A stretch of DNA of 32,000 nucleotides from an uncultured bacterium (GCA_964640155.1 CAZXEQ010000008.1:1-32000), one strand, 5' to 3'. Numbered from the stretch's first letter, positions 1 through 17,699 are shown. Notes: a model not told the origin generated them from the letters alone. Numbers and translations are program-made.

Positions 1-3000
1 CTTATTAAATTAGAGCTAAGCAGAAGCGAATTAGAAGAGTTAAAAAAGAATGGATCCCCGACAAGTACGCTCGGGGATGACAAACCAACAAACTTCCTGT
101 CATTCCCGAAAGCTGTAATCGGGAATCCATTTTTTGAAAGAAGCGACAAGTTCAAATTAGACATTCAAGACCTCATTCAAAGTGCATGGCAGTTTTATGA
201 ATTGGCACAAAAGCGTGATCATGTTTTGGCTCAAAATGCTTTAAGGGCATTGAAGTCACCAGTCATCAGTCTCCAGTCTCCAGAAAACAAAAATACACTA
301 GAACTGGAGACCGGCGACCGGAAACAGGCGACTATCTTAATCACCGGCGGTTTCCACACAGAAGCCATCCAAAAGCAATTAGAAGAATCAAACATCAGCT
401 ACAGCACATGGACCCCGATTGTCTCCGGAGATATCTCAAAAAGCCTTTATGAAAAGATCATGATGGATGAGAGATTTGATCTCGACAATATTGAGTTCTC
501 CCAGAAACGTATCTCAACCCGGCATGACAAAGATTCCATCCATCAAATGCTTGCAAGCCCATCTTTAATTGCTGAATTCGAAGCGCTTGGAGAGGTAAGA
601 CAGGCGTCACTTCAACAAAAAATTGTTGCAAGATTTGTGAATCTTAGAATAGGACAAGGGGCTTCTGTTCCTCAAACTTTTGAAGAATGGTTTGGTGAAA
701 AGTTTTGGGAGGATTTGAATGAGAAAGAACAAAGGATAGCAAAAAAAGTTTTTGATCTTTTTTATCAAGTTTTTCAAATCGAAAAATATAATCCTAAAAG
801 TGAAACTCAAGCCTATCTTGCCATTGGAGTTTTAGAGGAGGTTTTTGGAGAGGATTCTGTTGTAGTTAAAATCGCCCAAGACCATTTTAATAGGCAAAAA
901 TCCAAGACTCTCGCTGAATGGAGAGCTCTCTATGGAAAGGATTGGGATTCTATTTTTGAAGAGCTGAATAAAATTGGATTTTTCTTCGACTCTACAGAAA
1001 AGAGAGAGCTAAGAGAGGCAATTGAAAAGTTAAATCTTAAAGAAGGGCAGAAGTATTTACATGTAGGTATGGCACTTAATAAATTGGTTTTTTTATTAAG
1101 TCTTAATGGGGTTGAGTGTGTTTTTGTGGATTTAGATCCAGATATTATGGGAAGTATACGCGTGTGGTTTGAAGTTTCCTATAAAGCATTAAATATTTCA
1201 GAACTTCTTCCCGTAAGATTTATTACTAAGAATATTGATAATGTAATGAGTAAAGATGGTTTAACGCTCGATGAAGAAGATACATTTGATGTCATTTCCA
1301 TGTTTCATGTTTTTTTTAATTTTAATGGAGATATGTCGAGAGCTATTGGGAATTTGCTGGCACTTGTGAAACCAGAAGGAATTCTTTGGTTTACTCCTGA
1401 AACTACTCTTCCAGGTATTGCAAGTAATATGGATATGTCTGCTGCTGTGAGAAAAATAGCTAGTAGAATTAAAAATAAAGGAATTGGTTTAGAAGAAATC
1501 TCAGATGTTGTGATAGATGGAAAATTTAATGACGATTCTCTTAATCATGCTTATCGGGTTGTTAAACCTCCGCGTTCTTTACCTTTGGCAACAGGGGAAT
1601 CGGTTGGTACACTTCGAGCGATTGGCCCTTATAAAACACCAAAAACTTTAAGTCAAAGTGAAATGGACCATCTCGTAGATTTATCTGGAGGGCAAAGCCA
1701 AACTAATAGCTCTGAAATAAATGGGAAGGTTATCGAATCTCAGGTGGTTATTTATAATGAAGATGATGAAAATGACAAAATTGGGCAAATTGCAAAATCA
1801 AAAGAATTTAAACATGCATTTCATATACCAGCTTCTTTGTCCCAAGATGGGAAGAATTATGTTTTTATTTCTTCAAAGGCAGGAGCACAAACTAGCTTTT
1901 ATCAATGGCATGAAATAACGGAGATTTATATTAGAAGTGAGTTTGGAGCTAAAATTCATGCTGATATAGGCAGTGGATATTGGCCCGAAGATTATACATT
2001 TGAGCGCATTCTACATATCCTTGCATGGGCTTATGATATTCATTTTGCAATGTCTCAACAATCCGGAGAAGATCTTAGAAGATCTCCATTTCGTTCTTCT
2101 GCATCACTTCCAGGTTCAACATTGGAAGATCTTTTAGGCTTTCTCTATCCCCAAGAAAATTTAAATTATAAAGCTCTAGTAGATCTTTTAATTGAGGAAC
2201 GTTCACAAGACATTCTGACAAGGTATTTACCTCATACAGTTTTACACCAAAAGGAATTTGAAGAAAAAATCAGAGGCTTTGTTGTAAATGTATTAGTAGA
2301 GGCTTACAAAAGAGAAGCTGTTCAAATAGGAAGTGGAGTTGTTTTATTTAACCCTGTCGTACGATTTTTAGCAAGAGCAGCCTTTTCAACTACTGATAAG
2401 CATGGAGCGAGTGAAAGACAGGAATTAGACGATTCTTTTGAGCAAATTGTTGACAATGGTTATATTCCCATTCGTCAGCTGAGTCTTGAAAGAATAGAGG
2501 CGGGCATGCCTGCGATTGTAAGAACTTATGAAGTAATTGATGTTGAAGCAGGCAAAATAAAATTTCTTATGGTTATTTCTCAAGGGGAGACAGCTTCGAC
2601 TAAGAGTTGCTATGTATCAGATTCTGCTGTAAAAGCACAACCTATTCAATCTGTTGGAAGCTGGTTGGAAAGATTCCCTCAAGAGCAAAGAAAAGCAGAA
2701 TTTTCTGCCTTTCTAGGCAGATTCACAAAGTTTATCGAAAATAATTTTGATCCTGAAAGAGGTATGCCGCAATATGAAGATGTATTGGTTACTCCTGGTG
2801 GATACCCTGTACTAAGAAATTCTTCCCCATCTTTTGAAACTCCCGAAGCTTTTTTTCTTAAGCTTTTTTATGATGGTAAGATTCCTAGGAATCTTAGAGA
2901 GGATGGTATTGAAAAAAGAATTATTGAAGTTTTTGGCAAAGACAAGGGAGAGGGGCAATTGTTTACTGTTTTGCCGTCTACTCGTGGAAGTCTCTCGCCT

Positions 3001-6000
3001 TCTTTGATATGTAGGCCTGACAAAAATGCTCGTGATGAGGGAATCAGAAATTGTTTTTCAATGAGACACGCAGGAGTAACAAGCGCAGCGCACATGGAAG
3101 GCCTTAAATTGAAAGTGGGAGGCCCGATAAGATGGAGAGATCAAGAGATTAAAGATGAAAATGTTTTTAAAATTAAAGAAGCCGCGAAAGCCCAATCCAC
3201 TCAATTAGATGGAAAAATAGAAGGAAAAGCTGTTTGGATTGACAATGAAATATTATACAGGTTTTCTGAATTTGGTTTTGAGTCGCAAGATGATTTTGTT
3301 CATTTCCTTAAAGAATATTTAGCGGAGCAGTTTAAAACCTCACCTCCTCAACAAAATGAAGTTATGATTGCACTTCTCTCTAGTTCTACCCACCTTTTTG
3401 AAGATCATAAAACCAACGGATTCATCGGAATTAATGCACAGCTTTTTAGTCAAACCATTTCTCCACAGCTTCGAAGAAAGCTTTTAATGATTGGTTTAAG
3501 GCACGAGTTGCGTCATGAATCAAGCGTGAGTAACTCGGTTGAAGATGAAACGATATTATTAAAAGAAGATGCTCTCTATGCCAGAACATTAGGAATGACC
3601 GATCAAGAATTGCTTGTTACAGATGTTTTTAGTCGCGAGTCAGAACTTATTCAGATGTTAAAAAATTCTGTTTTTCTTGAGCGTGTAAAAAGCATTCTCT
3701 TGAATAGCTCATTACCTCCAGACTGGCGTGTGATGGAAGCAGTTGCTTTGATTGGTAGGAATGATGCTATTTCCTCAGAGGTAGTATTTTGGTTTATTGT
3801 CGATGAGATTCTTTTAAGTTCTGATTTAGAGCTAGGAGATATGTCGACAGTGGCATCGGTGCTGTCCTTTCTATTTTGGAGTGCTCATTCTACAGATTCT
3901 TTGCTTGCAGGACTAAAAGAACGGTTTTTACGAAAGGATTTGACAGATGGAGTTGTTTATCGGATCACTTATTTGCTGATATGTATAGAATTTTTTACTG
4001 CAAATAATATTTCTAGAAAAGAGTTGATCTTAAATTTTGTTGAAAGTCTGTGTCAGGAAGTTTTTGAAAATTCAGATTATAATTATGCTCTTCCCCGTAC
4101 ACTTGCTATGGTGAAGGTTTTTGTGAACAAGTACAGAAGCGATACAATTCTTGACAAACTTGAGAAATTTCTATTGCGAGAAGATTTACGAAAAGTGAAC
4201 CCAAATATTTCTAGAGAAGTAGTTGAGCTTCTTTATGATTTCGCTGATAGAGGGGATGCAGGATTTTTAGCACATACATTCAATGTTTTTAGAAATATTT
4301 TGTTCCATCCCAGAAGTCGTCTTGACGTATCCGCCCATGTTTTAGAAAAATTAATAAAACTATGTGATAAAACTTCGGATCCCTCAACAGCCGCATCTCA
4401 TATTTCTCAGCTACCGGGTCTTTTAATGAGTTCTAATTTGATTGCTGCTATTGAGAATACACTTCAACGAACAATGAATCAGTTGTCGAGCGGGGATTTA
4501 AATCCGGATGATCAAGCTATAGCCAAACGTGTTTTACTTTTAGGCATTGATTTGCTAGTTAGAATTCATAGACTTACGAAGCTTTCTAGTATGGAAGATA
4601 GGGCATACGAGGCATTGAAACAACTTCTCACGAAGGCTTATCAGTTAGGTTCATCAGAGGAATTGAATTTGTTTAAGGATGCTGCAGGTCTAGAATTGTT
4701 TTTAATTGATCATGAGAACTCTCCTAAAAAAACGGATTCAAAAAATGTTTTGAAATTATCTGATCATCTTTCCTTGGTAGAGGAATTTAATCCTGAACGA
4801 CTCATAAAAGTGATGAGATTATTGGTAAACGATGGGATTCATTCGTCCGATGTCGAAGCGGCTCAAAACATTGTCGCGATATTAATTAGAGTTAAATTAA
4901 GATTGGCTGCTAAGGCGTATTTGCTAGGGGAAATAGATAAAATTATAAGTGATATTCAAGAAGTCCGATCAGAAGTTTTTGTGCCTGATTTTTCAGGGCC
5001 TTCAAATATTGCCTTATTGCCCAGAGGTGTGGTTGCAGGACATGGTGGTATTAGGGGTAAGACGGTCAATCGACAAGTGAGCGCTAAAAGGGACGATGAA
5101 ATAATCACGTTTAATGTCGTTGATGCAAGAGATAAAACAGGAGATGAGTTGCAAGGCCAATTGGGCCAATTTATGGCAACGAAAACATACAGCGATTTAG
5201 ATGAGGAAACAAAAACAGCATTTGAGAGTACAAGACTCGTCATTCTTAAGGATCAAGTGGAAGTTGCTTCTGATAAAAATGGAATGAGCTTTGGACATTA
5301 TGGTGAAGATCGCGGACCTACACAATTTATTGGTGAAGAGCTTTTAAAAGCATTGCTAAAACATCCACCTTTGCTAACTCTGTGGATTCGAATTGAAATG
5401 AGTCGAAAAATTTATCGTGAAAAGAAGAGAAAAGAGCTTCTTAGTCAAGGGATTACAATCCTCACCAAAAATCAAATTAAAGATCCTCTTAAAGATCCTC
5501 GCAGTAGTTTAAAAGCTATTCGTGATTTAGGCCTCGCTCCAGCTGATGTAGAAGAGCTAACCAGTACCATTATTAAAACAAAAGTCCAATTTGAACTACA
5601 AAAAATGCGTGCAAGCATGAGCGATTTAGATATTTCAGAGATGGTCATTTACGCTGCAGATGAAGCAGATAGAATGGGAGGGGCAAATTTTGAGATTGCA
5701 GGTATCGATTTAGGATGGCTAAAAGGGAGATATTTGGAAGAAATGAAAAATCAGTTGGCCCAGATTCTGCGTGCCTCCAATCCTCTTTCAAGAGAAATTT
5801 ATGAAAATTATGAATCTTTAAGTCTTGCAGCAGCAGAAAAAGTAAAAGAGCAAATTTTGCAAAAACCAAATTCTGTGCTCTTATTTCCAACAGGCAATAC
5901 ACCTAAGGGCATGTATCGACATTTAGCTCGAATGGCTAAAGCAGGGGAGATTGATTTTAGTGAAGTGACTATTTTTATGTTGGATGAATACGAAGGTGGG

Positions 6001-8760
6001 AGAGATTATTACAATTTTATTCATGAAAATTTGATCCATAAGCTTCCTTTAGGGAATCGACCTATTATTCATGTTTTGAATGGTCAAACAGACAATGTGA
6101 ATCTTGAAACAAAAGCATATGAAGATAAAATCCAAGCTGCTGGAGGGATAGATTTAGCTATATTAGGGCTAGGTGTTGAAGGACATATTGCCTTTAATGA
6201 GAAAGGGGCTTCTCCTTACACACATACACGTAGATTTAAACTTGCGCAATCGACGATTGAAGCAAATCCAGAAGCTAAAGCAAAAGGATATACCCATGCT
6301 CTGACAACTGGAATAGGTACAATTTTAGAAGCTAGAAAAATACTGGTTTTGGCTAATGGTCCCAAGAAAGCCAAGATTATAAAAGAACTTTTAGATCACG
6401 CGCCTACGAAAGAAATTCCTGCAACTTATTTAAAATTCCATTCTAATGTGACGCTCATGATGGATAAAGAAGCAGCTGGTCAGGTTCAAGAACCAAAAAA
6501 TCGCAAAAGTGCTTTAAAAGCTTTTGATGCAATCTACAAAATTTTAGAGCGTTATTCTAATGTGCATCGTGGAACAGGACAGCATTCACAAGTAAGCACC
6601 CATCTTTTTGAACAAGCTAGATTTTGGATTGGAGAAAAATTAGGAGCTGATCGAAAGCAGCAGGAGGTGATTTTAGGAACTCACCCTGAGGATATGATGG
6701 AAGCATTAGCACATGATTTGCGTTTAACGCCGAGCGACGGAGTGATTTCTGACAGTGAAGAACCATGGAGCTTTTTGAATCGAACAGGTTTACCTCTGAG
6801 GAATGGAGAAATTGATTTTGGGAAATTAAAAGCTGTTTTGCGAAAAGGAGCTGTTAAAGTCCTTTCTATCCAACATCCTGTTCAATTGGGACTGTATCCT
6901 TCAAGTATTTCTCGGCTAAGTAAGTTAGCACACCGGTATGGGGTAAAGCTTATTGTAGATGCAAGTGAATGGCCTTATAAAGAAGTTAATGCGAAGTCTT
7001 TAGGGGTTGATTATTTAATTTTTGAGGGTGGGAAAATTTCTCCTTTTGCGCCGACAGTGGTTTTAGCAGATCGAAGCCTTCTCAAGACAGATTCGAAAGA
7101 GTCTCCTCGCTTACGAGGAGGGGGGACAAAGAAATTTAATTCACAGGCCAGAGTCATTTGGGCTGATGCTCCTGATAAATTTGAAGTGGGAAGTCCAAAT
7201 ATTGTTGGGACTATTCTTTTAGGATCATTTCTAAAAAATAATGGACGGTTACCTTTTGGAGAAAGTGTAGCTAGAGCATTGCCTCAAAAACGTCCCTTTA
7301 CTATAGATTCTTTAAGAGAAAGTTTAATTGGGAAAGATTTGCTTGTTCCTACTTTATATGGAGATAAAGTATATGTAAATTTTGATAATAGTTCTTCAAC
7401 CCCAACATTTGTACCTATTCTGGAAGCCATTGAACAATATGTTTTCGCGTCTACCGATGAGCAGACTAGAATGGTTGCACAGGCTCTAGATGCTGTTTTT
7501 GATTATTTTGGGACCTCTTCAGAAGATCATGAACATTATTCCTTTAGAAATACATCAGAAGCAGCAAACTATGTGGCGCATGAATTTATAACTTCTGAAG
7601 ATGATGTTGTGGTTAATTCTTTTATAGAACATAATTCCAATGAGCTTCCTTGGAGAAGTGAACAGAGTCAGATTCGCTTGGAACCGGATGCAAATGGATT
7701 TTTTGACCCAGCACAACTTGAAAAATTTTTAATAGAATATAATATAGAGAAAAAACATGGGAGAAAACGTATTAAACTTGTAGCCATTTCAGGCGCATCA
7801 AATGTGCTAGGAACGGTGAATAATCTTAAAGAAATAGGTGAACTAGCTCGAAAATACGATGTAAAATTAATGGTTGATGCTGCGCAGCTATCTGCTCATC
7901 GCGAAGTCAATATGGAAGAATGGAATATTGACTTTTTGGTTTATTCGGCTCATAAGATTTATGCACCCTTTGGTCATGGGGGACTTATTGCACGAAAGGG
8001 GCTATTAAAGAAAAAAAGAGCGGTTGTTCCTGCTCCGGAAGGTTTAATCGCTGTAGCAAGATCTTTTGAGATTTTAAAGAAGGACATAGGATTAGATGCT
8101 GTGGCTCATCATGAAGAAGAGCTTTTGCGCTATGCTCTGGGTAAGTTCCAGGATTTAAATAAAAAAGAAGGAGTGAATGTGCAGATTTATGGAATTAACG
8201 ATACTGAGTCTGACAATATTAAAAATAAAACAGGCGTGATTGTTTTTAATCTTCAGATAGATGATAAATATTTACCTCCAAGTCTTAAAGAGAGAAAATT
8301 TCTTCCCTATAATCTTGTTGCTGCAATTTTAGCTGAAGAAGGTGGTATCGGAGGTCGAGCAGGCTGTTTTTGTGCGGATCTTCTCATTCAGAGATTGTGG
8401 GGACTTGGGGAAAAACAAATTGCAGAGCTTCAAACTCAAAGTCGTTCAAATCAACCAGGTGCTGTTCGCATCAGTTTTGGAATTTATAACACCAAAGAAG
8501 AAATTGACCGAGTTTTTGAAGTTTTAAATCGTTTGGTAAAAGGTGAAATAGATCTTTCGAAATATAAGTTTAATGAAGACTTGGGTGAGTATTATACGCA
8601 TGAACATCTGGAAGCTATGGAGAAACTTTTAGTAGGAATGGAAAAAATTGTTTTTGGTCCTAGCGAAGAGCAACATTCTCATGCGCATCTTCCTGTTGTT
8701 AGACCTACAGAAGTTATTCCTTTACGGGTCAATGAAGGTGCTTTTGCTGCTGCTGCTTAA
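1..8760 (+). CDS. Giant multidomain protein, 5'-truncated by the window edge (2,919 codons visible)
   Basis: Frame 1 has no stop from nt 1 to TAA 8758-8760. Hand translation of 1-201 gives LIKLELSRSELEELKKNGSPTSTLGDDKPTNFLSFPKAVIGNPFFERSDKFKLDIQDLIQSAWQFYE, which runs straight into the track ORF. The track start at 202 is only the first in-frame TTG, has no SD, and sits inside a helix-like segment. Readable pieces: QKRD..ILITGGFHT..L..SNISY (TraB/GumN-like, ~205-400); MTase-like fold (1045-1401); HELRH (3502-3516); Leu-rich helical repeats (~3680-4970); NagB-like domain (5788-6480); class-V PLP folds (6520-7245 and 7369-8545). Confidence 0.85.
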   Translation, partial: LIKLELSRSELEELKKNGSPTSTLGDDKPTNFLSFPKAVIGNPFFERSDKFKLDIQDLIQSAWQFYELAQKRDHVLAQNALRALKSPVISLQSPENKNTLELETGDRKQATILITGGFHTEAIQKQLEESNISYSTWTPIVSGDISKSLYEKIMMDERFDLDNIEFSQKRISTRHDKDSIHQMLASPSLIAEFEALGEVRQASLQQKIVARFVNLRIGQGASVPQTFEEWFGEKFWEDLNEKEQRIAKKVFDLFYQVFQIEKYNPKSETQAYLAIGVLEEVFGEDSVVVKIAQDHFNRQKSKTLAEWRALYGKDWDSIFEELNKIGFFFDSTEKRELREAIEKLNLKEGQKYLHVGMALNKLVFLLSLNGVECVFVDLDPDIMGSIRVWFEVSYKALNISELLPVRFITKNIDNVMSKDGLTLDEEDTFDVISMFHVFFNFNGDMSRAIGNLLALVKPEGILWFTPETTLPGIASNMDMSAAVRKIASRIKNKGIGLEEISDVVIDGKFNDDSLNHAYRVVKPPRSLPLATGESVGTLRAIGPYKTPKTLSQSEMDHLVDLSGGQSQTNSSEINGKVIESQVVIYNEDDENDKIGQIAKSKEFKHAFHIPASLSQDGKNYVFISSKAGAQTSFYQWHEITEIYIRSEFGAKIHADIGSGYWPEDYTFERILHILAWAYDIHFAMSQQSGEDLRRSPFRSSASLPGSTLEDLLGFLYPQENLNYKALVDLLIEERSQDILTRYLPHTVLHQKEFEEKIRGFVVNVLVEAYKREAVQIGSGVVLFNPVVRFLARAAFSTTDKHGASERQELDDSFEQIVDNGYIPIRQLSLERIEAGMPAIVRTYEVIDVEAGKIKFLMVISQGETASTKSCYVSDSAVKAQPIQSVGSWLERFPQEQRKAEFSAFLGRFTKFIENNFDPERGMPQYEDVLVTPGGYPVLRNSSPSFETPEAFFLKLFYDGKIPRNLREDGIEKRIIEVFGKDKGEGQLFTVLPSTRGSLSPSLICRPDKNARDEGIRNCFSMRHAGVTSAAHMEGLKLKVGGPIRWRDQEIKDENVFKIKEAAKAQSTQLDGKIEGKAVWIDNEILYRFSEFGFESQDDFVHFLKEYLAEQFKTSPPQQNEVMIALLSSSTHLFEDHKTNGFIGINAQLFSQTISPQLRRKLLMIGLRHELRHESSVSNSVEDETILLKEDALYARTLGMTDQELLVTDVFSRESELIQMLKNSVFLERVKSILLNSSLPPDWRVMEAVALIGRNDAISSEVVFWFIVDEILLSSDLELGDMSTVASVLSFLFWSAHSTDSLLAGLKERFLRKDLTDGVVYRITYLLICIEFFTANNISRKELILNFVESLCQEVFENSDYNYALPRTLAMVKVFVNKYRSDTILDKLEKFLLREDLRKVNPNISREVVELLYDFADRGDAGFLAHTFNVFRNILFHPRSRLDVSAHVLEKLIKLCDKTSDPSTAASHISQLPGLLMSSNLIAAIENTLQRTMNQLSSGDLNPDDQAIAKRVLLLGIDLLVRIHRLTKLSSMEDRAYEALKQLLTKAYQLGSSEELNLFKDAAGLELFLIDHENSPKKTDSKNVLKLSDHLSLVEEFNPERLIKVMRLLVNDGIHSSDVEAAQNIVAILIRVKLRLAAKAYLLGEIDKIISDIQEVRSEVFVPDFSGPSNIALLPRGVVAGHGGIRGKTVNRQVSAKRDDEIITFNVVDARDKTGDELQGQLGQFMATKTYSDLDEETKTAFESTRLVILKDQVEVASDKNGMSFGHYGEDRGPTQFIGEELLKALLKHPPLLTLWIRIEMSRKIYREKKRKELLSQGITILTKNQIKDPLKDPRSSLKAIRDLGLAPADVEELTSTIIKTKVQFELQKMRASMSDLDISEMVIYAADEADRMGGANFEIAGIDLGWLKGRYLEEMKNQLAQILRASNPLSREIYENYESLSLAAAEKVKEQILQKPNSVLLFPTGNTPKGMYRHLARMAKAGEIDFSEVTIFMLDEYEGGRDYYNFIHENLIHKLPLGNRPIIHVLNGQTDNVNLETKAYEDKIQAAGGIDLAILGLGVEGHIAFNEKGASPYTHTRRFKLAQSTIEANPEAKAKGYTHALTTGIGTILEARKILVLANGPKKAKIIKELLDHAPTKEIPATYLKFHSNVTLMMDKEAAGQVQEPKNRKSALKAFDAIYKILERYSNVHRGTGQHSQVSTHLFEQARFWIGEKLGADRKQQEVILGTHPEDMMEALAHDLRLTPSDGVISDSEEPWSFLNRTGLPLRNGEIDFGKLKAVLRKGAVKVLSIQHPVQLGLYPSSISRLSKLAHRYGVKLIVDASEWPYKEVNAKSLGVDYLIFEGGKISPFAPTVVLADRSLLKTDSKESPRLRGGGTKKFNSQARVIWADAPDKFEVGSPNIVGTILLGSFLKNNGRLPFGESVARALPQKRPFTIDSLRESLIGKDLLVPTLYGDKVYVNFDNSSSTPTFVPILEAIEQYVFASTDEQTRMVAQALDAVFDYFGTSSEDHEHYSFRNTSEAANYVAHEFITSEDDVVVNSFIEHNSNELPWRSEQSQIRLEPDANGFFDPAQLEKFLIEYNIEKKHGRKRIKLVAISGASNVLGTVNNLKEIGELARKYDVKLMVDAAQLSAHREVNMEEWNIDFLVYSAHKIYAPFGHGGLIARKGLLKKKRAVVPAPEGLIAVARSFEILKKDIGLDAVAHHEEELLRYALGKFQDLNKKEGVNVQIYGINDTESDNIKNKTGVIVFNLQIDDKYLPPSLKERKFLPYNLVAAILAEEGGIGGRAGCFCADLLIQRLWGLGEKQIAELQTQSRSNQPGAVRISFGIYNTKEEIDRVFEVLNRLVKGEIDLSKYKFNEDLGEYYTHEHLEAMEKLLVGMEKIVFGPSEEQHSHAHLPVVRPTEVIPLRVNEGAFAAAA
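51..129. repeat. 79-nt compound palindrome (two hairpins with near-identical 8-bp stems), followed by a T6 run
   Basis: Hairpin 1: ATCCCCGA (54-61), 9-nt loop, TCGGGGAT (71-78). Hairpin 2: ATTCCCGA (102-109), 9-nt loop, TCGGGAAT (119-126). Flanks TGG/CCA (51-53/127-129) and GAC/GTC (79-81/99-101) also pair, so the left arm 51-81 is the near-reverse-complement of the right arm 99-129. TTTTTT lies at 130-135. By hand count the element is about half G+C, clearly richer than its surroundings. Confidence 0.8.
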
Positions 8761-8781
8761 AGAAAGATGAGGAGTGCGTAA

Positions 8782-9171
8782 TTATTGTTTCTTCTTTGAA
8801 TGCTGTTTCAGCCAGTTTTCAATTTCCTGAAAACTCATTTCACCTGTTGCAACTTTTAAACACATCTTAATTTCTTCCTCAGAGTTTGAGGTCAGATCAT
8901 GATGGTTGATAAGTAGCATCAGATGCATGGCTCCAAATCCGGCCCTTTTATTTCCATCTAAAAAAGGATGATTTAGAACTATTGAATGCAGTAAAGCCGC
9001 TGCTTTTCCAAAGAGAGAAGGATAGGCATCTTGACCAAACGCTGATGCTTGTGGGCGCAAAACAGAAGATGCAAGCAGGCCTTTATCGCGAATGCCGAGC
9101 GTCCCACCATGAGCTTCTATAACCTGTTGATGAACATAAAGAATCTGATCGAGTGAAAGATAACGAGTCAT
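8782..9171 (-). CDS. doc: Doc (death-on-curing) family Fic-fold toxin
   Basis: 129-aa ORF with the Doc-type Fic motif HPFLDGNKRAGF. Typical N-terminus (LSLDQILYVHQQVIEAHGG..GIRD.GLL.S). Its ATG overlaps the stop of the upstream small ORF (ATGA at 9171-9168). Confidence 0.9.
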   Translation of the reverse strand: MTRYLSLDQILYVHQQVIEAHGGTLGIRDKGLLASSVLRPQASAFGQDAYPSLFGKAAALLHSIVLNHPFLDGNKRAGFGAMHLMLLINHHDLTSNSEEEIKMCLKVATGEMSFQEIENWLKQHSKKKQ

Positions 9172-9407
9172 TCAGCAAGTTTTTTATAAGTGGCATGATG
9201 CTTTTTAAGACTATAGTCCACAAGTTGAGCAAACATGCTATCAACAGCACCATCAGTATAGGTTGTGCTCATTTGTTTATAATGGTCATCAAGCAAAAAT
9301 ATGGCTTTTTCCGTTAACTGCCGTATCGGAATATGTGTTTTTTTATGTAGTTTGTTAAGAATCGCTTTCGCTTTAGCGTCAATTCTTGTAGCCAGGGGTA
9401 CTGTCAT
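9168..9407 (-). CDS. Ribbon-helix-helix type antitoxin partner of Doc (Phd-functional analogue)
   Basis: Small ORF directly upstream of doc with a 4-nt overlap. N-terminus PLATRIDAKAKAILNKLHKKTHIPIRQLTEKAIFLL has a strand-helix-helix pattern. I prefer the ATG at 9407 (MTVPLATRID) because GGAGG lies 7 nt upstream of it. The track start at 9422 is that same GGAGG region. Confidence 0.75.
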   Translation of the reverse strand: MTVPLATRIDAKAKAILNKLHKKTHIPIRQLTEKAIFLLDDHYKQMSTTYTDGAVDSMFAQLVDYSLKKHHATYKKLAE

Positions 9408-9491
9408 AGGAACAACCTCCATAAATACATTAGCATGTTTTTAAGAGTAAAAGCTAGCAAAAACTAGAAAAAGCATGTATTTTTATAATTA

Positions 9492-10238
9492 ATGAATACT
9501 ATTAAACTTATCCTTTCCTATGACGGAACGAACTATCATGGTTGGCAGTTGCAAAAAGGCCATACGACTGTCCAGGAAGTGTTAGAAGAAGCCATTGAAA
9601 AAATTGTTCATGAAAAAATTCGTGTGACGGCCGCTGGGCGGACAGATGCGGGGGTGCATGCATCGGGGCAAGTGGTTCATTTTATTTCAGAAACAAAAAT
9701 TCCAGAGCGTATTTTAAAACGGGCTATCAATAGTAAATTACCTGACGATATTCAAATTATAAAGTTACAAAAAGCTTTAAAAGATTTCCATGCAAGATTT
9801 TCAGCTAAGTCAAAAATTTACCAATATCATATTTGGTTGGGAGAAACTCTTCCTGTTTTTCAAAGACATTTTGTGTTGCATCATCCAGGTAAGTTTGATG
9901 TCCTGAGCGTGGCGAAAGCAGTTAGAGTTTTAAAGGGGCGACATGATTTCTCAAGCTTTGCAGTCAATCCCAATTTAAATAGAAAACCGTTAAGAGATAA
10001 AGTGCGATTAATGAAAGATGCTCAATTGAAGAAAAAAGGTCATTTGATCACAATTCAGTTGGAAGCAGAAGGATTTCTCTATAAAATGGTTCGGTCTATT
10101 GTAGGAACACTGCTAGATGTAGGAGAAGGAAAGCTTTCGGCTAATGAATTTAAAGAGATATTTCAAAAAAGAGACCGACGCTTTGCAGGTAAAACAGCGC
10201 CACCTCACGGGTTGTGTCTTGTTAAAGTGAAGTATTAA
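9492..10238 (+). CDS. truA: tRNA pseudouridine(38-40) synthase TruA
   Basis: N-terminus KLILSYDGTNYHGWQ.Q, catalytic-Asp motif GRTDAGVHA, and the later FLYKMVRSIVG motif. Length 248 aa. Confidence 0.95.
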   Translation: MNTIKLILSYDGTNYHGWQLQKGHTTVQEVLEEAIEKIVHEKIRVTAAGRTDAGVHASGQVVHFISETKIPERILKRAINSKLPDDIQIIKLQKALKDFHARFSAKSKIYQYHIWLGETLPVFQRHFVLHHPGKFDVLSVAKAVRVLKGRHDFSSFAVNPNLNRKPLRDKVRLMKDAQLKKKGHLITIQLEAEGFLYKMVRSIVGTLLDVGEGKLSANEFKEIFQKRDRRFAGKTAPPHGLCLVKVKY

Positions 10239-10254
10239 AACGATAGGAGAAACA

Positions 10255-11139
10255 GTGAGTTTAAGAGAAAAATTACATCAAAATAAATTTGTTATTACCG
10301 CAGAACTTTCACCTCCGAAAGGGCCGGATGTCACTGAGCTTTTAGAAAAGGCAAGAAAGCTTAAGGGTTTGGTGGATGCAGTTAACCTTACAGATAATAA
10401 TCGTGCGGTGATGTGCTTGAGTTCATTAGGCGCATCAGCACTTCTTGTTCGCGAAGGACTTGAGCCTATTTTACAAGTGACTTGTCGTGATCGTAATCGT
10501 ATGGGTCTTCAATCAGATCTCCTCGCTGCACATGTTTTAGGAATTCATAATATTCTTTCATTAACAGGAGACCCTGTGAAGGTGGGAGATCATCCTGAAG
10601 CCAAAGAAGTTTTTGATATTGATTCTTTACAACTAATGAAAGCAATACAAGGTTTGAACCAAGGTGTGAATTTAGCAGGTAAAGAGTTGAATGGAAAAAC
10701 TGAATTTTTAATTGGTGCTGCGGCCAATCCTGGAGCAAAGGATTTAGAGGTAGAACTTTCAAAATTTCAGAAAAAGGTTGAATGTGGTGCCCAGTTTTTT
10801 CAGACACAAGGTGTGTATGAAGTGAGTTCTTTTAAGAAGTTTATGGATAAAATAGCCTCTTTTTCTGCCAAGATTATTCCGGGGATTATCCTTCTTAAGT
10901 CTTCAAAAATGGCACAGTTCTTAAATGAAAAGGTGCCTGGTATTCATGTTCCGGAAAAACTAATTCAACGTCTCGAACAAGCAAGCGATCCCATTGAAGT
11001 GGGAATTGAGATCGCGGCTCAGACTATTCAAGAGTTGCAAGGGGTATCAAGTGGCGTTCATTTAATGTGTATAGGAAGAGAAGATTTGATCCCTAATATC
11101 TTAAAAAAGGCCAGTTTAGATGGGGTTAAAATAGGCTAA
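10255..11139 (+). CDS. metF: 5,10-methylenetetrahydrofolate reductase (MetF family)
   Basis: 294 aa. ITAELSPPKG...NLTDN...QVTCRDRN...LSLTGDP...FQTQ pattern of the MTHFR TIM barrel. GTG start preceded by AGGAGA. Confidence 0.85.
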   Translation: MSLREKLHQNKFVITAELSPPKGPDVTELLEKARKLKGLVDAVNLTDNNRAVMCLSSLGASALLVREGLEPILQVTCRDRNRMGLQSDLLAAHVLGIHNILSLTGDPVKVGDHPEAKEVFDIDSLQLMKAIQGLNQGVNLAGKELNGKTEFLIGAAANPGAKDLEVELSKFQKKVECGAQFFQTQGVYEVSSFKKFMDKIASFSAKIIPGIILLKSSKMAQFLNEKVPGIHVPEKLIQRLEQASDPIEVGIEIAAQTIQELQGVSSGVHLMCIGREDLIPNILKKASLDGVKIG

Positions 11140-11182
11140 AAATAGGCCAGAAGAGAAGAGTAAAATTTTTCAATTTATATAG

Positions 11183-11211
11183 TTGACACATATTAGGCAG
11201 AATGGTATTTT
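11183..11211 (+). promoter_or_regulatory. Candidate sigma70-type promoter for rplM-rpsI
   Basis: TTGACA (11183-11188), 17-nt spacer, TATTTT (11206-11211), about 28 nt upstream of the rplM ATG. Confidence 0.4.
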
Positions 11212-11238
11212 ACTGGCCTCAAATTTTAAGGAAACCAA

Positions 11239-11673
11239 ATGAGTACAAAGAGTTATCAGGCAAAAGCTTCTGAAATAGAACGTAAGTGGTATTTAATTGA
11301 TGCAGAAAACAAGGTTCTTGGAAGATTGGCATGTCGTATTGCTGATATTCTGAGAGGCAAAACAAAGCCTATTTTTACGCCTTATGTGGACTGCGGAGAC
11401 TTTGTTGTTGTAGTGAATGCAGAAAAAGTACGTACAACCGGTCGAAAGGCTGATCAAAAAACATACGTCACCTTTTCTGGTTATCCAGGTGGACAAAAGA
11501 TTGTTTCTTTTGAACGGATGAAAGAGGAGCATCCAGATCATATTCTTAAGCATGCGATCAAGGGTATGTTACCTTCGAATCCTTTAGGTAGAGCTGTTTT
11601 TAAAAAGCTTAAAGTCTATGCTGGCACAGCGCATCCTCATCAGGCACAAAAACTCCAAAAATTAGAAGTTTAA
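11239..11673 (+). CDS. rplM: 50S ribosomal protein L13
   Basis: 144 aa. [38 protein letters not shown] is the canonical L13 N-terminus. Followed by rpsI. Confidence 0.97.
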
Positions 11674-11695
11674 ACTTTATTTATAAGAGGAAAAA

Positions 11696-12091
11696 ATGGC
11701 TGAAGTTGCTCGTCATCAAGGAACAGGTAGAAGGAAAACAGCAATTGCAAAAGTTTTTTTGCAATCAGGTTCTGGAAAAATTCTTGTGAATGGACGTGAT
11801 TTTAAAGAATTTTTTCCTCGACTCAATTTGCAACATCTCCTTCGTCAGCCTCTTGAGGCGACAAAAACAGAAAAGACACTCGATGTTAATGCGAGTGTTT
11901 TGGGTGGTGGGGTTTCTGGACAAGCAGGTGCATTAAGACATGGTATTGCACGTGCGCTTCTAGCCTCCAATCCAACACTCAAGTCCATTTTGAGACAAGG
12001 TGGCTTTTTGACTCGAGACCCAAGAGCACGCGAAAGAAAGAAATACGGTCAAAAAGGTGCTCGCAAGCGTTTCCAATTCTCGAAACGATAG
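11696..12091 (+). CDS. rpsI: 30S ribosomal protein S9
   Basis: 131 aa. GTGRRK.A.A.V....GSGKI.VNGR and the C-terminal RD.R..ERKKYG..GARKRFQFSKR signature. Confidence 0.97.
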   Translation: MAEVARHQGTGRRKTAIAKVFLQSGSGKILVNGRDFKEFFPRLNLQHLLRQPLEATKTEKTLDVNASVLGGGVSGQAGALRHGIARALLASNPTLKSILRQGGFLTRDPRARERKKYGQKGARKRFQFSKR

Positions 12092-12157
12092 AATGTCAGG
12101 AGTGAAAACAATTTATTTGTTAAAGTTTTATTTTTAAAAATATTTTTTAAAAGAAAA

Positions 12158-12190
12158 GCAGAGGACATTCATATTTCCTCTGCTTTTTTA
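12158..12190 (+). terminator. Rho-independent terminator after rpsI
   Basis: Perfect 8-bp stem GCAGAGGA (12158-12165) / TCCTCTGC (12176-12183), extendable by flanking A/T pairs, with a 10-nt loop and TTTTTT at 12184-12189. Confidence 0.8.
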
Positions 12191-12252
12191 TTTGTATCTA
12201 TAAATCATTAACATATAATAAAACTCCTCATTAAAAGGTTCTAACTGACACG

Positions 12253-13269
12253 ATGAAAATTGGAATATGTGGGGCTACAGGTTATAGCGGCCGAGAACTC
12301 GTTCGGATTTTATTAAAACATCCGAAAGTGGAAATTGGCTTTTTGACTTCACAGCAATTTTCGGGTCAGCCCTACAGCGATGTTTTCCCTCAATTTCGGG
12401 GTCAAATAGATTTGGTTTGTCATCAGATGGAAGCAGGTCCCGACGAAGCAAAGGTGGATCTTGTTTTTCTAGCATTACCTCACACGCTTTCAATGAAAAT
12501 TTCACCTCTTTATCTTAAGAAGAATGTAAAAGTGATTGATTTAAGTGGCGACTATCGTCTCTTGAAAACAGAAGAATATGAAAAATGGTATGGTGCAAAG
12601 CATTTAGATCCTTCAGGTGTTGAAAAAGCGGTTTATGGGCTTTGCGAATTTTTTAAAGATAAAATTCAAACCGCAAATTTTATAGCTAATCCAGGTTGTT
12701 ATCCAACAGCAACATGTTTAGGGTTAGTTCCAGCTTTAAAGATGGGACTGATTGATTCTCAAAATATTATCATTGATGCAAAATCAGGTGTAAGTGGAGC
12801 AGGAAGAAGTCCAAGCCTAGGGACTCATTTTGCTGAAGCTTATGAAGACATGAAGCCTTATAAAATAGGTACTCACCAACACACCCCAGAAATTGAGCAA
12901 ACGCTTAAGATTTGCTCGGAGGCTAACGTCAATGCTCTTTTTGTTCCACACCTTATTCCTATTGAACAAGGAATTTTGTGTACCATGTATGGAAATTTGA
13001 AGAAAAAGATAAAAACTGCAGAAGCGATTCAGGCGTATCAAGACTTTTATAAAGGAAAAACATTTGTTCGTGTGTACCCCGAGAAGAAAATCCCTCAGAC
13101 AAAATTTGTTCGCAATTCTAATTATTGTGATATCGGTCTAGTCGTGGATGAGCGCACCAACAAACTCGTGATTATTTCCGCTATTGATAATATGATTAAA
13201 GGCGCTTCAGGTCAGGCTGTGCAAAATATGAATTTGATGTGTGGATTTCCAGAAAATTTAGGGCTATAA
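12253..13269 (+). CDS. argC: N-acetyl-gamma-glutamyl-phosphate reductase
   Basis: 338 aa. GATGYSG.EL.R.L..HP N-terminus and the active-site Cys context ANPGCYPT. Confidence 0.95.
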   Translation: MKIGICGATGYSGRELVRILLKHPKVEIGFLTSQQFSGQPYSDVFPQFRGQIDLVCHQMEAGPDEAKVDLVFLALPHTLSMKISPLYLKKNVKVIDLSGDYRLLKTEEYEKWYGAKHLDPSGVEKAVYGLCEFFKDKIQTANFIANPGCYPTATCLGLVPALKMGLIDSQNIIIDAKSGVSGAGRSPSLGTHFAEAYEDMKPYKIGTHQHTPEIEQTLKICSEANVNALFVPHLIPIEQGILCTMYGNLKKKIKTAEAIQAYQDFYKGKTFVRVYPEKKIPQTKFVRNSNYCDIGLVVDERTNKLVIISAIDNMIKGASGQAVQNMNLMCGFPENLGL

Positions 13270-13306
13270 AATTCTAATAAGATTTCAAATATAAAGAGAG
13301 CATAAA

Positions 13307-14509
13307 ATGGCATCTTTTAAAGAAATTTCTCATGTTTCAGTTTGTTTTCCTAAAGGTTTTGTCGCTGCAGGAATCAATGCTGGAATTAAAATGACAAAAA
13401 AAGATTTGATGCTAATCGTTTCAGAAAAGCCTGCTCGCGTTGCAGGAACATTTACGACAAATGCATTTGCGGCGGCCCCGGTTCGTTGGTGTCGTGAAGT
13501 TGTGAAAAAAGGAGTTGCTCAAGCTATCATTGCCAATAGCGGAAATGCAAATGCTTGCACAGGAGACGGGGGAGCGCGTGATGCAAAGAAAATGGCAAAA
13601 CTGGTAGCACAAGAATTGGGAATTCCTTTTGAAACTGTATTAGTTTCTTCGACGGGTGTGATTGGTAAACGTTTGCCCATGGAAACGATTGAAACGGGTA
13701 TTAAAAAAATATCTAGCGTGATATCAAGTTTTGGAGATGTAGATGCTGCTACCGCTATTTTAACAACAGATACCTGTGCTAAAACGGTGGCTGTTGAATT
13801 TCAAATTGGATCAAAAAAAGTACGAATGGGCGCGATCGCAAAAGGCGCTGGAATGATTCAACCCAATATGGCAACCATGCTTTGTTATATTACAACGGAT
13901 GCAGTTATTGAGTTGTCGGCTTTAACGGCTTCGCTTAAAACAGCAGTTGAAGATTCTTTTAATTGTATTACCGTTGATGGGGATATGAGTACCAATGATT
14001 CTGTTATCTTGCTGGCAAATGGCCAGGCAGGTAATCCAGAAATTTTAGTAGGTTCTGAAGGCTATAAGATCTTTTGTGAGGCTCTTTCTTTTGTGACTCT
14101 AAAATTAGCAAAGCTTATTGTTTGGGATGGAGAGGGCGCTACAAAGCTTGTTCGAATTAAGGTCCGAGGAGCTACCACCGATGAAGATGCGAAAAAAGCG
14201 GGTCTAGCTATTTCTAATTCCAATTTATTTAAAGTTTCTCTTTATGCTGAGGAACCCAGTTGGGGAAGATTAATGGCAGCGCTTGGAAGTACAGGCTTAA
14301 AAGGATTAAATTCTGAGAAAATCTCTGTTAAATTTAATGGACGCATTTTTGTGAAGAAAGGTAAAGCGACAAATATTACGCGTGGAGAAGCTCGAAAAGT
14401 TATGAGAGCCAAGCAAATTGAAATTGATGTTGATTTGGGGCAAGGCCAAGGTAAAAGCACTGTTTGGACATGTGATTTAACACACAAGTATGTTGATATT
14501 AATATGTAA
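13307..14509 (+). CDS. argJ: Bifunctional ornithine acetyltransferase / N-acetylglutamate synthase
   Basis: 400 aa. GF.AAG..AGIK, autoprocessing site PNMATMLCYITTDA, and C-terminal DL...YV.IN. Confidence 0.95.
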   Translation: MASFKEISHVSVCFPKGFVAAGINAGIKMTKKDLMLIVSEKPARVAGTFTTNAFAAAPVRWCREVVKKGVAQAIIANSGNANACTGDGGARDAKKMAKLVAQELGIPFETVLVSSTGVIGKRLPMETIETGIKKISSVISSFGDVDAATAILTTDTCAKTVAVEFQIGSKKVRMGAIAKGAGMIQPNMATMLCYITTDAVIELSALTASLKTAVEDSFNCITVDGDMSTNDSVILLANGQAGNPEILVGSEGYKIFCEALSFVTLKLAKLIVWDGEGATKLVRIKVRGATTDEDAKKAGLAISNSNLFKVSLYAEEPSWGRLMAALGSTGLKGLNSEKISVKFNGRIFVKKGKATNITRGEARKVMRAKQIEIDVDLGQGQGKSTVWTCDLTHKYVDINM

Positions 14510-14515
14510 TTTCGC

Positions 14516-14543
14516 TGTGCGTTATTCGTCGTGCGTTATGCGT
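14516..14543. repeat. Tandem heptamer array (nnTGCGT)x4 in the argJ-argB spacer
   Basis: tgTGCGT taTTCGT cgTGCGT taTGCGT at 14516-14543. Read on the minus strand this is ACGCAnn x4, the same unit as at 28025-28059. Confidence 0.75.
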
Positions 14544-14562
14544 TTATTGAAAGAGAAGATAT

Positions 14563-15507: not shown

Positions 15508-15542
15508 AACTTTTACTCTCTATAGAATTCTTGAAAGGTCCT

Positions 15543-16742: not shown

Positions 16743-16744
16743 CA

Positions 16745-17680
16745 ATGAAAAAAGATTTTTTAGCTTTTGAAGATTTTACACAGGAAGAGATTTTAAAGCT
16801 TTTAGATTTAGCTCAAAAATTAAAAGCCAATCCTATTCAGCCTCTATTGCTTGGAAAAACATTAGGTCTTTTCTTTACAAAATCTTCAACACGAACGCGT
16901 GTTTCTTTTGAAGTGGGAATGATTCAGCTGGGTGGACATTCTATTTTTTTAGATAGTCAAGGTTTGCAGTTGGGAAGAGGTGAGACAATTGCAGACACAG
17001 CCAGAGTTCTTTCTGGCTATTTAGATGGTTTAGTAATTCGAACTTATGCCCATGAGGATGTGGTGGAGTTCGCTAAAAATGCAACTATTCCCATTATTAA
17101 TGGATTAACAGATGCGCTACATCCTTGCCAGATTTTAGCTGATCTTTTGACGATTAAAGAGAAGAGAGGACAGGTTAAGGATTTGACGATTGCCTATGTG
17201 GGGGATGGTGCAAATAATATGGCGCATACATGGCTTTTTGCTGCCGCTGTGATGGGGATGAAATTTAGAATAGCGGCACCTCCTGAATTTTGGCCAGATC
17301 CTGAGTGTGTTCGCCAAGCGGTGAAACTTTCTTCAGTGGGCTCAAGATTCTTTGAAGCTACCAAAGATCCTTTAATGGCTGCACAAGGTGCAGATATTAT
17401 CTATACCGATGTTTGGGTGAGTATGGGGCAAGAAAAAGAAAATGAAAAACGATTAAAGGTTTTGGCTCCGTATCAAGTAAATCAAAATTTGATAAAAGTG
17501 GCCTCAAAAGAAGTGCTTGTGATGCATTGTCTTCCCGCACATCGGGGAGAAGAGATTTCAGCCGAGGCAATGGAAAGTCCTCATTCTGTTATTTTTGAGG
17601 AAGCAGAAAATAGACTGCATAGTCAAAAAGCTTTGATGGTGATGCTCATGGAAAATCAAAAATTAAAAATTAAAAATTAA
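16745..17680 (+). CDS. argF: Ornithine carbamoyltransferase
   Basis: 311 aa. The STRTR, HPCQ, DVWVSMG and [10 protein letters not shown] motifs are OTC-specific rather than ATCase-like. Confidence 0.95.
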
Positions 17681-17699
17681 AAATAAGAGAGTCTTGAAA

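Follow-up and report, generated by a model that had tools for sequence, protein, structure and literature searches.

What is a protein of several thousand residues, built from enzyme folds that normally occur as free proteins, doing as a single chain, and to what family does it belong? The question is raised by a 32,000-nucleotide stretch of DNA from an uncultured bacterium (GCA_964640155.1 CAZXEQ010000008.1:1-32000; this whole stretch is the window below), whose first 8,760 nucleotides are filled by one giant gene. We refer to the giant protein as Q, to its relatives by P-numbers, and to contigs by L-numbers. Profile comparison places Q in a very large, unannotated protein family of the Planctomycetes-Verrucomicrobia-Chlamydiae (PVC) group, mostly of Omnitrophota, whose members have conserved ends and interchangeable middles. 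A sequence-only reading of the window had held that the combination of domains matched no described family; this view falls, since Q has kin among about 9,800 clusters, the nearest described proteins being the Omnitrophota Archaeovorins and the giants termed multi-enzyme metabolic clusters.

The gene itself can be taken as real. Frame 1 of the plus strand is open from nucleotide 1, as the sequence-only reading had stated, to a stop at 8758-8760, a run of 2,919 codons whose 5' end lies beyond the window and which no other long open reading frame (ORF) overlaps. Its GC content (0.34-0.39) and positive GC skew are the same as those of the housekeeping genes downstream. In a scan for relatives' genomes that took one genome per species, the nearest match was JAYRIK01, a metagenome-assembled genome (MAG) of Candidatus Auribacterota, a separate PVC phylum, in which the orthologue lies on two short contigs with 65-79% amino acid identity to Q (L003, aligned to residues 1-830 at 65%; L002, aligned to residues 1224-2420 at 79%). 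Where stops, frameshifts or a chimeric join had been named as reasons for doubt, this independent assembly keeps a single frame open over all 5,207 nucleotides of L002 and has the same modules in the same order at the junctions from N-terminal domain through linker to methyltransferase-like module, and from helical stretch through module M and NagB to the first SufS unit. Ratios of nonsynonymous to synonymous divergence (dN/dS; Nei-Gojobori method, Q against the MAG orthologue, module by module) are 0.16-0.41 across all alignable modules, unannotated ones included. Thus, on the evidence of the open frame, the module order in the orthologue and these ratios, the giant ORF is a continuous gene under purifying selection. 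Its missing N-terminus is supplied by L003 (about 380 residues, starting MGNTVVLRKGYKKLLALLLSFSIG), and alignment with P0001 implies about 394 residues upstream of the window, which bears out the expectation that the rest of the N-terminal domain lies there. Adding these 380-395 residues to the 2,919 in the window gives a full length of about 3,300; the gene thus has roughly 3,300 codons, of which the 3' 88% or so lie in the window. Judging from the orthologue and relatives, the upstream part carries a signal peptide-like segment and the D-x-H and EG motifs described below.

The family is defined by its N-terminal domain. A first homology search returned six proteins of 3,862-4,899 residues, from Omnitrophota or Chlamydiota bins, whose enzymes differ from one to the next: AceK; LOG with methyltransferases; NagB; M48 with UbiB; DUF89; and ROK with phosphoglucomutase (PGM). 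BLAST of Q against its relatives gives a mosaic in which separate modules of Q match separate relatives. Five of the six have an N-terminal signal-like segment and a domain of about 520 residues (the N-domain, or head) with five motifs: IIHIQDAH (IQDxH), EGxxG, GxED, FYxxAxKRDxxxxxN and TGGFHT. The domain is complete in the orthologue on L003, and its last 160 residues or so fall in the window, where BLAST matches residues 51-150 of Q to as many as 31 members of the family. Pfam and NCBIfam both lack a model of the domain. With clusters drawn at 50% identity, our own profile found 9,771 representatives at E <= 1e-3, of which 6,573 reach E <= 1e-30, and those members that carry a name are Omnitrophota proteins labelled by their cargo, such as a 'carbon storage regulator' of 2,933 residues and a 'GH15' of 7,727.

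Among the 150 best-scoring cluster representatives, from which the family statistics below are drawn, lengths range from 540 to 7,727 residues (median 2,390) and the N-domain starts within residues 1-127 in every one; none of the proteins scanned has a second, internal copy. Omnitrophota bins also contain stand-alone versions of 300-870 residues, which have a signal peptide but little or no cargo (for example P0016, 301 residues; P0013, 423 residues; and P0007-P0015). On L003 a second giant ORF (1-7513) lies on the same strand 460 nucleotides upstream of the orthologue (7975-11651). It encodes more than 2,500 residues, with its N-terminus off the contig, internal repeats, an ending in ...QVDAAA, and modules in common with P0002, P0097, P0111 and P0091. 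Family genes can thus occur in tandem.

The plan that emerges from these comparisons has four parts: a probable Sec-type signal peptide; the N-domain of about 520 residues, with a core apparently of the TIKI/erythromycin-esterase/ChaN type bearing D-x-H, a Glu 28 residues later, an Arg and a His; a series of cargo modules that varies between members and spans 0.5 to 7 thousand residues; and a conserved tail of about 25 residues closing in small and hydrophobic residues. In Q the cargo runs from a methyltransferase-like module through about 500 unannotated residues, a zincin-like module with HExxH, a Leu-rich spacer and a second unannotated module to a NagB-type module and two SufS-like units, the first truncated and the second complete. 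The modules read in the window, all on the plus strand, are as follows, with the basis of each assignment and its divergence from the MAG orthologue (dS, synonymous divergence).

1-480, plus strand: C-terminal part (residues 1 to about 160) of the N-domain, from the L003 orthologue and family alignments; dN/dS 0.21
571-900, plus strand: linker, residues 191-300, common to Q and P0001; 94% identity with the orthologue, dS 0.10
898-1635, plus strand: class-I methyltransferase-like module, residues 300-545 (Pfam match to Methyltransf_23 at residues 332-464); dN/dS 0.36
1636-3132, plus strand: unannotated region, residues 546-1044, of which only the part to residue 830 is in the orthologue
3133-3600, plus strand: recurrent zincin-like module, residues 1045-1200, with LFEDHKTNGFIGIN and HELRH, from a hidden Markov model (HMM) of the module
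3679-4971, plus strand: Leu-rich stretch, residues 1227-1657, from composition; 77% identity with the orthologue, dN/dS 0.28
4984-5772, plus strand: unannotated module M, residues 1662-1924, found by BLAST also at residues 2695-2955 of P0001; dN/dS 0.17
5797-6492, plus strand: NagB-type (glucosamine-6-phosphate deaminase/isomerase) module, residues 1933-2164, from Pfam, NCBIfam and PDB; dN/dS 0.17
6520-7320, plus strand: SufS-like copy 1, large pyridoxal phosphate (PLP) domain only, residues 2174 to about 2440, from homology; dN/dS 0.16
7378-8640, plus strand: SufS-like copy 2, complete class-V aminotransferase fold, residues about 2460-2880, from Pfam, NCBIfam and PDB
8686-8760, plus strand: C-terminal tail ...VRPTEVIPLRVNEGAFAAAA and stop codon, apparently a degenerate form of the family's C-terminal motif

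What kind of domain is the head? Full N-domains gave no Pfam hit at E <= 0.1 and core-only sequences nothing relevant at E <= 10, and neither NCBIfam nor PDB profile searches yielded a relevant match; hits of the N-domain to calmodulin and troponin in the PDB were set aside as acidic-helix noise. Predicted structure was more informative. An AlphaFold model of the P0001 N-domain, with a predicted local distance difference test score (pLDDT) of 69.6, shows an alpha/beta core split by a helical insert of about 270 residues, and Foldseek searches with it returned helical noise with EreC and BcR135 as weak hits and the sole alpha/beta outliers. The model of the 301-residue P0016, in which the insert is short, reached a pLDDT of 86 and a predicted template modelling score of 0.80. 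Its best PDB matches are the BcR135 structures 3b55 and 2rad (Foldseek probability 0.98 and 0.96; E = 3e-3 and 7e-3), followed by HopBA1 (probability 0.51). BcR135, HopBA1, ChaN, PMT, RRSP and the erythromycin esterases form one TIKI superfamily (PMC6254334; PMC7979712), whose active members carry a set of two His and two Glu with a conserved basic residue and in which RRSP and TIKI are true endopeptidases (PMC6254334). The corresponding residues compare as follows.

Family (P0001 numbering): D96-x-H98; E126; His-to-Glu spacing 28; R442; H489; invariant in alignments A1, A3 and A4
RRSP: E3900-x-H3902; E3930; His-to-Glu spacing 28; R4001; H4030 (PMC6254334)
Bcr135: H85; E113; His-to-Glu spacing 28 (PMC6254334)

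The first acidic residue of the set is Asp in the family and Glu in RRSP. Of the set, the window itself holds R72, within KRDHVLAQN (the Arg/Asn motif, residues 71-79, nucleotides 211-237), and H119, within TGGFHT (residues 115-120, nucleotides 343-360), which by superfamily match would be the second catalytic His. The head thus resembles the superfamily in its parallel-sheet alpha/beta core with a helical lobe and in the succession of acidic-x-His, Glu at +28, Arg and C-terminal His; it differs in the bigger helical insert, about 270 residues in most family members, and in serving very long modular proteins as their fixed head at the N-terminus. From the models and residue spacing we conclude with moderate confidence that the head has a TIKI/erythromycin-esterase/ChaN-type core. 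The sequence-only reading had called this region TraB/GumN-like. The two motifs on which that name was based are real, and at the level of the superfamily the name is supported by the fold match and the spacing of the catalytic residues; at the level of the family it gains no HMM match to PF01963. TraB/PrgY/GumN (Pfam PF01963) was reportedly placed within the TIKI superfamily by Bazan et al. 2013 and by Sanchez-Pulido & Ponting 2013.

The other fixed end is the C-terminus. A closing [ASGT][LVIA]-COOH is present in 105 of the 150 best representatives, against 12 expected by composition, and conservation reaches back to about position -25 as L-x-I-R-P-[IV]-D-[YFW]-x-x-I-x-[DE]-W-x-x-[AS]-Q-E-A-V-A-T-[SA]-L. 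This tail goes with length, being found in 101 of the 131 members of at least 1,000 residues but in four of the 19 shorter ones. The chains of Q (...VRPTEVIPLRVNEGAFAAAA), P0001 (...DRPRIEAFEHPAPDPISWAA) and the upstream giant ORF of L003 (...EIKPHGLPRTEFQVDAAA) all finish in AA or AAA with R/K-P upstream, while their cargo is different. The Ala-rich, non-polar end already remarked on in Q (...GAFAAAA) conforms to the two-residue [ASGT][LVIA] rule, and against the family tail profile it scores -0.3 bits, higher than 95% of control C-termini, whose median is -15. The end of Q looks like a degenerate, clade-specific version of the family motif, and the tail proved to be one of the most informative features of the protein. 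A search with the tail profile alone for co-occurrence of head and tail returned one 56-residue fragment, the 45-residue profile being too short to reach significance in 5.8 billion sequences.

Between these ends, the modules of Q are of uneven clarity. The methyltransferase-like module matches Methyltransf_23 at E = 8e-6 and 26.1 bits, just below the 27-bit cut-off, and is 41% identical to a methyltransferase-annotated region of P0002, so the class-I fold read in it earlier is likely on these alignments. Its glycine-rich loop is the degenerate HVGMALN in place of GxGxG, which makes catalytic activity doubtful; the module is probably inactive. For residues 546-1044 no relative was found among the 165 family proteins scanned. 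The intact HExxH reported at 3502-3516 is indeed there (HELRH, residues 1168-1172), and it sits within a module of about 150 residues, of the pattern LFEDxxxNGFIGIN...GLxHELRHE, that recurs as 13 copies in 12 of the 165 proteins at varying positions, with HExxH intact in 10 of the 13; this module has no match in Pfam or the PDB. Residues 1227-1657, previously described as a HEAT/ARM-type helical stretch, are rich in Leu, as claimed (16.2%, against 11% overall), and low in Pro and Gly, whereas the HEAT/ARM assignment gains no backing from Pfam, which gave no hit, or from BLAST, which detected no internal repeat. From its composition, an all-helical spacer or scaffold, or a HEAT/ARM solenoid, is plausible. 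Module M terminates in a junction-like motif, FEIAGIDLGWLKGRYLEEMKNQLAQIL, and a motif of this kind, read from the sequences, precedes the enzyme block in Q, P0001 and P0002.

In the enzyme block the three metabolic folds of the sequence-only reading are all found on the one chain, where such normally free enzymes are as atypical as that reading had said: a NagB-like module, a truncated SufS-like unit (residues 2174 to about 2420 by this count, about 2440 as listed above) and a complete SufS-like unit. The NagB-type module scores 74.7 bits with Pfam PF01182 (cut-off 27) and 180 bits with NCBIfam TIGR00502 nagB, below that model's cut-off of 236.9. Alignment with 2bkv and 3hn6 pairs its MLDEY and GHIAFNE with identical motifs of those structures and indicates that the catalytic residues, whose Asp, His and Glu roles we take to be those of E. 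coli NagB, are intact. The SufS-like sequence scores 196.8 bits with Pfam PF00266 (cut-off 21.5) and 203 bits with NCBIfam TIGR01979 sufS, below the cut-off of 475, and PDB sequence matches for the NagB and SufS modules reach 1e-37. Because the scores lie far under the NCBIfam family cut-offs, we regard these modules as divergent relatives and not orthologues of the housekeeping enzymes. Copy 1 keeps the NVHRG loop, but with FEGGK in place of FSGHK and no Cys-loop domain it is probably non-catalytic on its own. Copy 2 has VDAAQ, SAHK with the PLP lysine, and the cysteine loop RAGCFCA (Cys2789, Cys2791), all aligned to solved SufS structures. The copies are 28% identical over 125 residues, and they are complementary in that copy 1 has the HRG loop and copy 2 the PLP lysine and Cys loop but no HRG. 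Such a pair could form a fused pseudo-heterodimer mimicking the SufS homodimer. Compared with free-standing NagB and SufS/CsdA (type II cysteine desulfurase), the fold homology is clear and the key residues are kept in the NagB module and SufS copy 2; the modules of Q differ in being fused within a giant chain, in having the SufS unit duplicated with one copy truncated and divergent, and in being nearly cysteine-free. The window contains no gene for the partners SufE, SufU or SufBCD.

Cargo of this general kind is common in the family. In 19 further members, Pfam models identified CsrA (in three), phosphoglucomutase/phosphomannomutase (PGM/PMM), starch synthase, DUF89, phosphofructokinase (PFK) and transaldolase, and also ABC1, UDP-glucose pyrophosphorylase (UDPGP), phosphoglucose isomerase (PGI), glycosyltransferase family 1 (GT1) and HEAT. 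Most of the relatives' cargo belongs to hexose-phosphate or glycogen metabolism, a setting that suits NagB. NagB itself occurs in three of the 165 proteins scanned, the zincin-like module in 12 and the SufS units in Q alone. CsrA RNA-binding domains lie inside giant proteins with signal peptides in P0018 and two more members, P0018 (3,946 residues; NCBI label 'carbon storage regulator') having three CsrA stretches. P0001 carries at least eight tandem copies of a repeat of about 95 residues at residues 1850-2650 or so (...LVKKLREEAGRLVEAGINGTYGGRPVSEIIADDEGQIWFYEQVFG...LPKELK..GKLLENWG.L.LNY), and a complete AceK (isocitrate dehydrogenase kinase/phosphatase) module forms its C-terminal end.

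Cassettes are exchanged even between close relatives. Residues 830-1223 or so of Q, comprising unannotated sequence and the zincin-like module, are replaced in the MAG orthologue by an unrelated cassette of 544 residues, and dS between modules of the two proteins ranges 12-fold, from 0.10 to 1.2. This replacement and this spread together indicate cassette exchange. In the orthologue's cassette (L002 3-1634, opposite window positions of about 2490-3670), a weak Kdo/Pkinase-like signal was seen, together with a sub-threshold helix-hairpin-helix like that of the RNA polymerase alpha C-terminal domain. In the linker of residues 191-300, dS is 0.10 beside 1.2 and 0.33 in the flanking modules; a value so far below its flanks suggests recent recombination or gene conversion limited to the linker.

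Our findings bear on the recognised puzzle of the Omnitrophota giants, of which function, topology and even the identity of the ends are in question. West-Roberts et al. 2023 (bioRxiv 10.1101/2023.11.21.568195) described 'Archaeovorins', Omnitrophota proteins from genes of more than 90,000 bp, with N-terminal regions without identifiable domains. The 'multi-enzyme metabolic clusters' that Nielsen & Lui 2026 (bioRxiv 10.64898/2026.06.07.730766) described as class 1 have 10,000 residues or more, and 94% of them carry signal peptides or transmembrane (TM) helices. Like these giants, Q tiles many unrelated enzyme domains with helical (HEAT-like) spacers and no dominant repeat, and its family overlaps theirs in repertoire (methyltransferase, PGM/PMM, ROK, starch synthase, GT1, LOG, receiver, peptidases), in the prevalence of signal peptide-like or TM segments, and in the origin of its named members. 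The differences are of size, Q having about 3,300 residues and the family 0.5-7.7 thousand, short of the 10 or 30 thousand from which the published giants are counted; of host, the nearest relative of Q being an Auribacterota MAG whereas the published giants are encoded by Omnitrophota; and of definition, the family resting on a conserved TIKI-like head and a C-terminal tail, where West-Roberts et al. report N-terminal regions with no identifiable domains. Archaeovorin hallmarks (glycosyl transferases or hydrolases, NUDIX, SecA-like, C39 or S8 peptidases) gave no Pfam match in Q at E <= 0.1, and the two share only methyltransferase-like and peptidase-like modules. Q is a small Auribacterota-clade cousin of the Omnitrophota multi-enzyme giants. 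The literature searched makes no mention of such proteins in Auribacterota or of a TIKI-type head on giants, and the head, the tail, the cysteine depletion described below and the cassette swapping appear to be new findings at the level of the family.

MARTX toxins offer a functional analogy, with conserved ends and variable, recombining enzymatic cargo on one giant chain. Their cargo domain RRSP has the TIKI fold (PMC6254334), which in the present family belongs to the conserved head. MARTX proteins are cytotoxins of type I secretion, in contrast to the probable Sec-type signal and metabolic-enzyme cargo here, and Q has neither RTX repeats nor a MARTX cysteine protease domain; it is no member of that group. 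What the family offers is the building principle of the giants in proteins small enough to handle (0.5-8 thousand residues), extended to a further PVC phylum, with cargo cassettes that move between close relatives. Thousands of proteins with two fixed ends, a head of TIKI/Ere fold and a short tail, would provide the first concrete experimental handles. If head and tail form a targeting or processing pair, the purpose of the giants could be tested with a 300-residue domain and a 25-residue peptide.

Where, then, does such a chain act? In the orthologue and five relatives, simple heuristics find a positively charged start, a hydrophobic segment of 12-17 residues and AxA-like sites, and in 135 of the 150 best members a hydrophobic segment precedes the N-domain, with a median net charge of +3 ahead of it. 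The window protein has no TM-like segment. Q has nine cysteines, of which the SufS loop contributes two; they make up 0.31% of the chain, where the window's housekeeping proteins contain 1.07% (p = 5e-6). Across the family the median is 0.44%, and neighbouring genes give 0.9-1.4%. Exported bacterial proteins typically exclude cysteine, and the depletion argues for cargo that leaves the cytoplasm. Family membership, architecture, conserved residues, purifying selection and cassette exchange are shown by the comparisons above; from them and from these traits of composition and N-terminus we infer that the chain is probably exported. On balance we think it probable, if not strongly so, that the conserved ends serve export and anchoring or processing and that the cargo acts outside the producer's cytoplasm. 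The ends would be shared handles for these steps and the middle of the chain interchangeable cargo exchanged through recombination, and the whole chain would cross the cytoplasmic membrane and do its work in the periplasm, at the cell surface, or on or inside a partner cell. The earlier suggestion of an effector, polymorphic toxin or surface machine is, in its effector and surface parts, compatible with the signal-like N-termini and the cysteine depletion; its polymorphic toxin part found no support.

Several observations weigh against an exported chain with functional ends. The evidence for export is heuristic, and the signal-peptide region of Q itself lies beyond the window. HMM comparison gave no link of the head to TraB/GumN, Ere or ChaN; the tail of Q is a weak match (-0.3 bits, where the family median is +15); the 150 representatives were chosen as the best-scoring and are not a random sample; and in four genomic contexts no conserved gene for a secretion or processing partner was found. 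Furthermore, the cargo enzymes are of kinds that belong to the cytoplasm. A sugar phosphate is required by NagB, PLP and cysteine are required by SufS, and the relatives' PFK, UDPGP and CsrA need ATP, UTP and RNA, so that working outside the cytoplasm is hard to picture.

Because the cargo needs cytoplasmic substrates and cofactors, the chief rival still alive is a membrane-tethered metabolon inside the cell, in which the hydrophobic segment would be an anchor or unused and the chain would channel hexose-phosphate, amino-sugar and sulfur metabolism, tied to regulation through CsrA and kinases. The cargo is coherent in this sense (NagB and SufS; in relatives PFK, PGI, transaldolase, PGM, UDPGP, starch synthase and CsrA), its catalytic residues are intact, purifying selection is strong and the genes lie among housekeeping genes. 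For the half of their catalogue that has TM helices only, Nielsen & Lui likewise retain the reading of a cytoplasmic chain anchored in the inner membrane (10.64898/2026.06.07.730766). We nevertheless judge a cytoplasmic metabolon somewhat unlikely. The N-termini resemble cleavable signal peptides, the positive charge before the hydrophobic segment would put the chain outside, Q has no later TM segment that could return it inside, and its cysteine content is about threefold below that of its cytoplasmic neighbours. The TIKI-fold relatives ChaN, TIKI and PrgY are extracytoplasmic, which also counts against it.

A bolder form of the export reading, speculative and to our minds improbable, would make head and tail the two halves of a new export, display or assembly system of thousands of PVC-group proteins (Omnitrophota, Auribacterota). 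The head would bind the tail in cis or in trans and cleave or join it, and the chains would be processed or linked head-to-tail into a coat. Enzymes of cytoplasmic type, dependent on sugar phosphates, PLP or S-adenosylmethionine, would then act together with CsrA in an enlarged periplasm or in a partner cell, and the giants of 10,000 to 147,000 residues would be the extreme end of the system.

Improbable as well is a self-processing polyprotein, in which the zincin-like module, the TIKI-type head or both would cut the precursor into its enzymes on either side of the membrane. The recurrence of the HExxH module at varying positions in 12 of the 165 proteins scanned would suit such a role, as would a head that retains a hydrolase-type catalytic set in a superfamily with the endopeptidases RRSP and TIKI, and the junction-like motif ahead of the enzyme block in Q, P0001 and P0002. 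Self-cleavage by N-terminal peptidases has been raised as a possibility for Omnitrophota giants by West-Roberts et al. (10.1101/2023.11.21.568195). Against it, the putative zincin module is missing from most members scanned and is swapped out in the MAG orthologue, so that it cannot be a general processing device. Self-processing is compatible with the preferred reading of an exported chain as an addition to it.

The remaining readings turn on the surroundings of the gene, whose features downstream are as follows.

8782-9171, minus strand: Doc-family toxin gene, convergent with the giant gene and 21 nucleotides from its stop
9168-9422, minus strand: 84-residue ORF, probable antitoxin, with a sub-threshold ribbon-helix-helix hit and a 4-nucleotide overlap with the Doc gene
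9492-27930, plus strand: co-directional biosynthetic run of truA, metF-like, rplM, rpsI, argCJBDFGH, lysA, dapAB, an aminotransferase, folK, panBCD and aspartate dehydrogenase (nadX)
28022-28573, plus strand: small ORF with a sub-threshold DUF1559 (SBP_bac_10) hit
30922-31924, minus strand: V/A-type ATP synthase subunit D and the C-terminal end of the A/B subunit

The giant gene had been said to abut a toxin-antitoxin pair. The Doc toxin is confirmed, while its partner has the sub-threshold hit alone. This neighbour, together with the conserved head and variable C-terminal part of the chain and the matches of the SufS-like module to the PADLOC models SspA and DndA, might point to a polymorphic toxin or defence-island protein whose C-terminal enzymes serve as toxins or as parts of Dnd/Ssp DNA phosphorothioation. 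Such a reading is very improbable and largely refuted. The SspA and DndA hits, the only ones PADLOC gave, reflect generic cysteine-desulfurase homology, and DndBCDE and SspBCD genes are absent from the window; on these grounds a role in defence was rejected. Nor is there a toxin domain or a downstream immunity gene, the other neighbours belong to arginine, lysine and pantothenate biosynthesis or encode ribosomal proteins, and the extreme C-terminus is conserved across the family where a polymorphic toxin would vary. The pair next to the giant gene appears to be there incidentally. P0004, too, has toxin-antitoxin genes (AbiEii, HicA/HicB) on its flanks, on L004.

The weakest alternative, an assembly chimera or decaying pseudogene that merely resembles one giant ORF, could be prompted by the probable metagenomic origin of the assembly and by the absence of an exact copy of Q from a collection of 5.8 billion proteins, but it is essentially excluded by the stop-free frame, the even base composition, the shared junctions and open frame of the independent MAG and the dN/dS values given above, and by the recurrence of the Doc/TruA junction on another, 1.9-kb contig.

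Relatives P0003, P0004 and P0005 adjoin dnaA-gyrBA, hisG, valS and uvrB, and no secretion or processing gene is shared around the three. No tRNA gene or Rfam family was found in the window. DUF1559 N-terminal types are common in Planctomycetota and other PVC bacteria, and the DUF1559-type ORF and V/A-type ATP synthase genes listed above both fit a PVC-group host. From 28595 to 31924 the genes lie on the minus strand, and the strongly positive GC skew falls to zero or negative near 28-30 kb, where the cumulative skew peaks; this change may be a mere change of gene strand or a replication-related switch.

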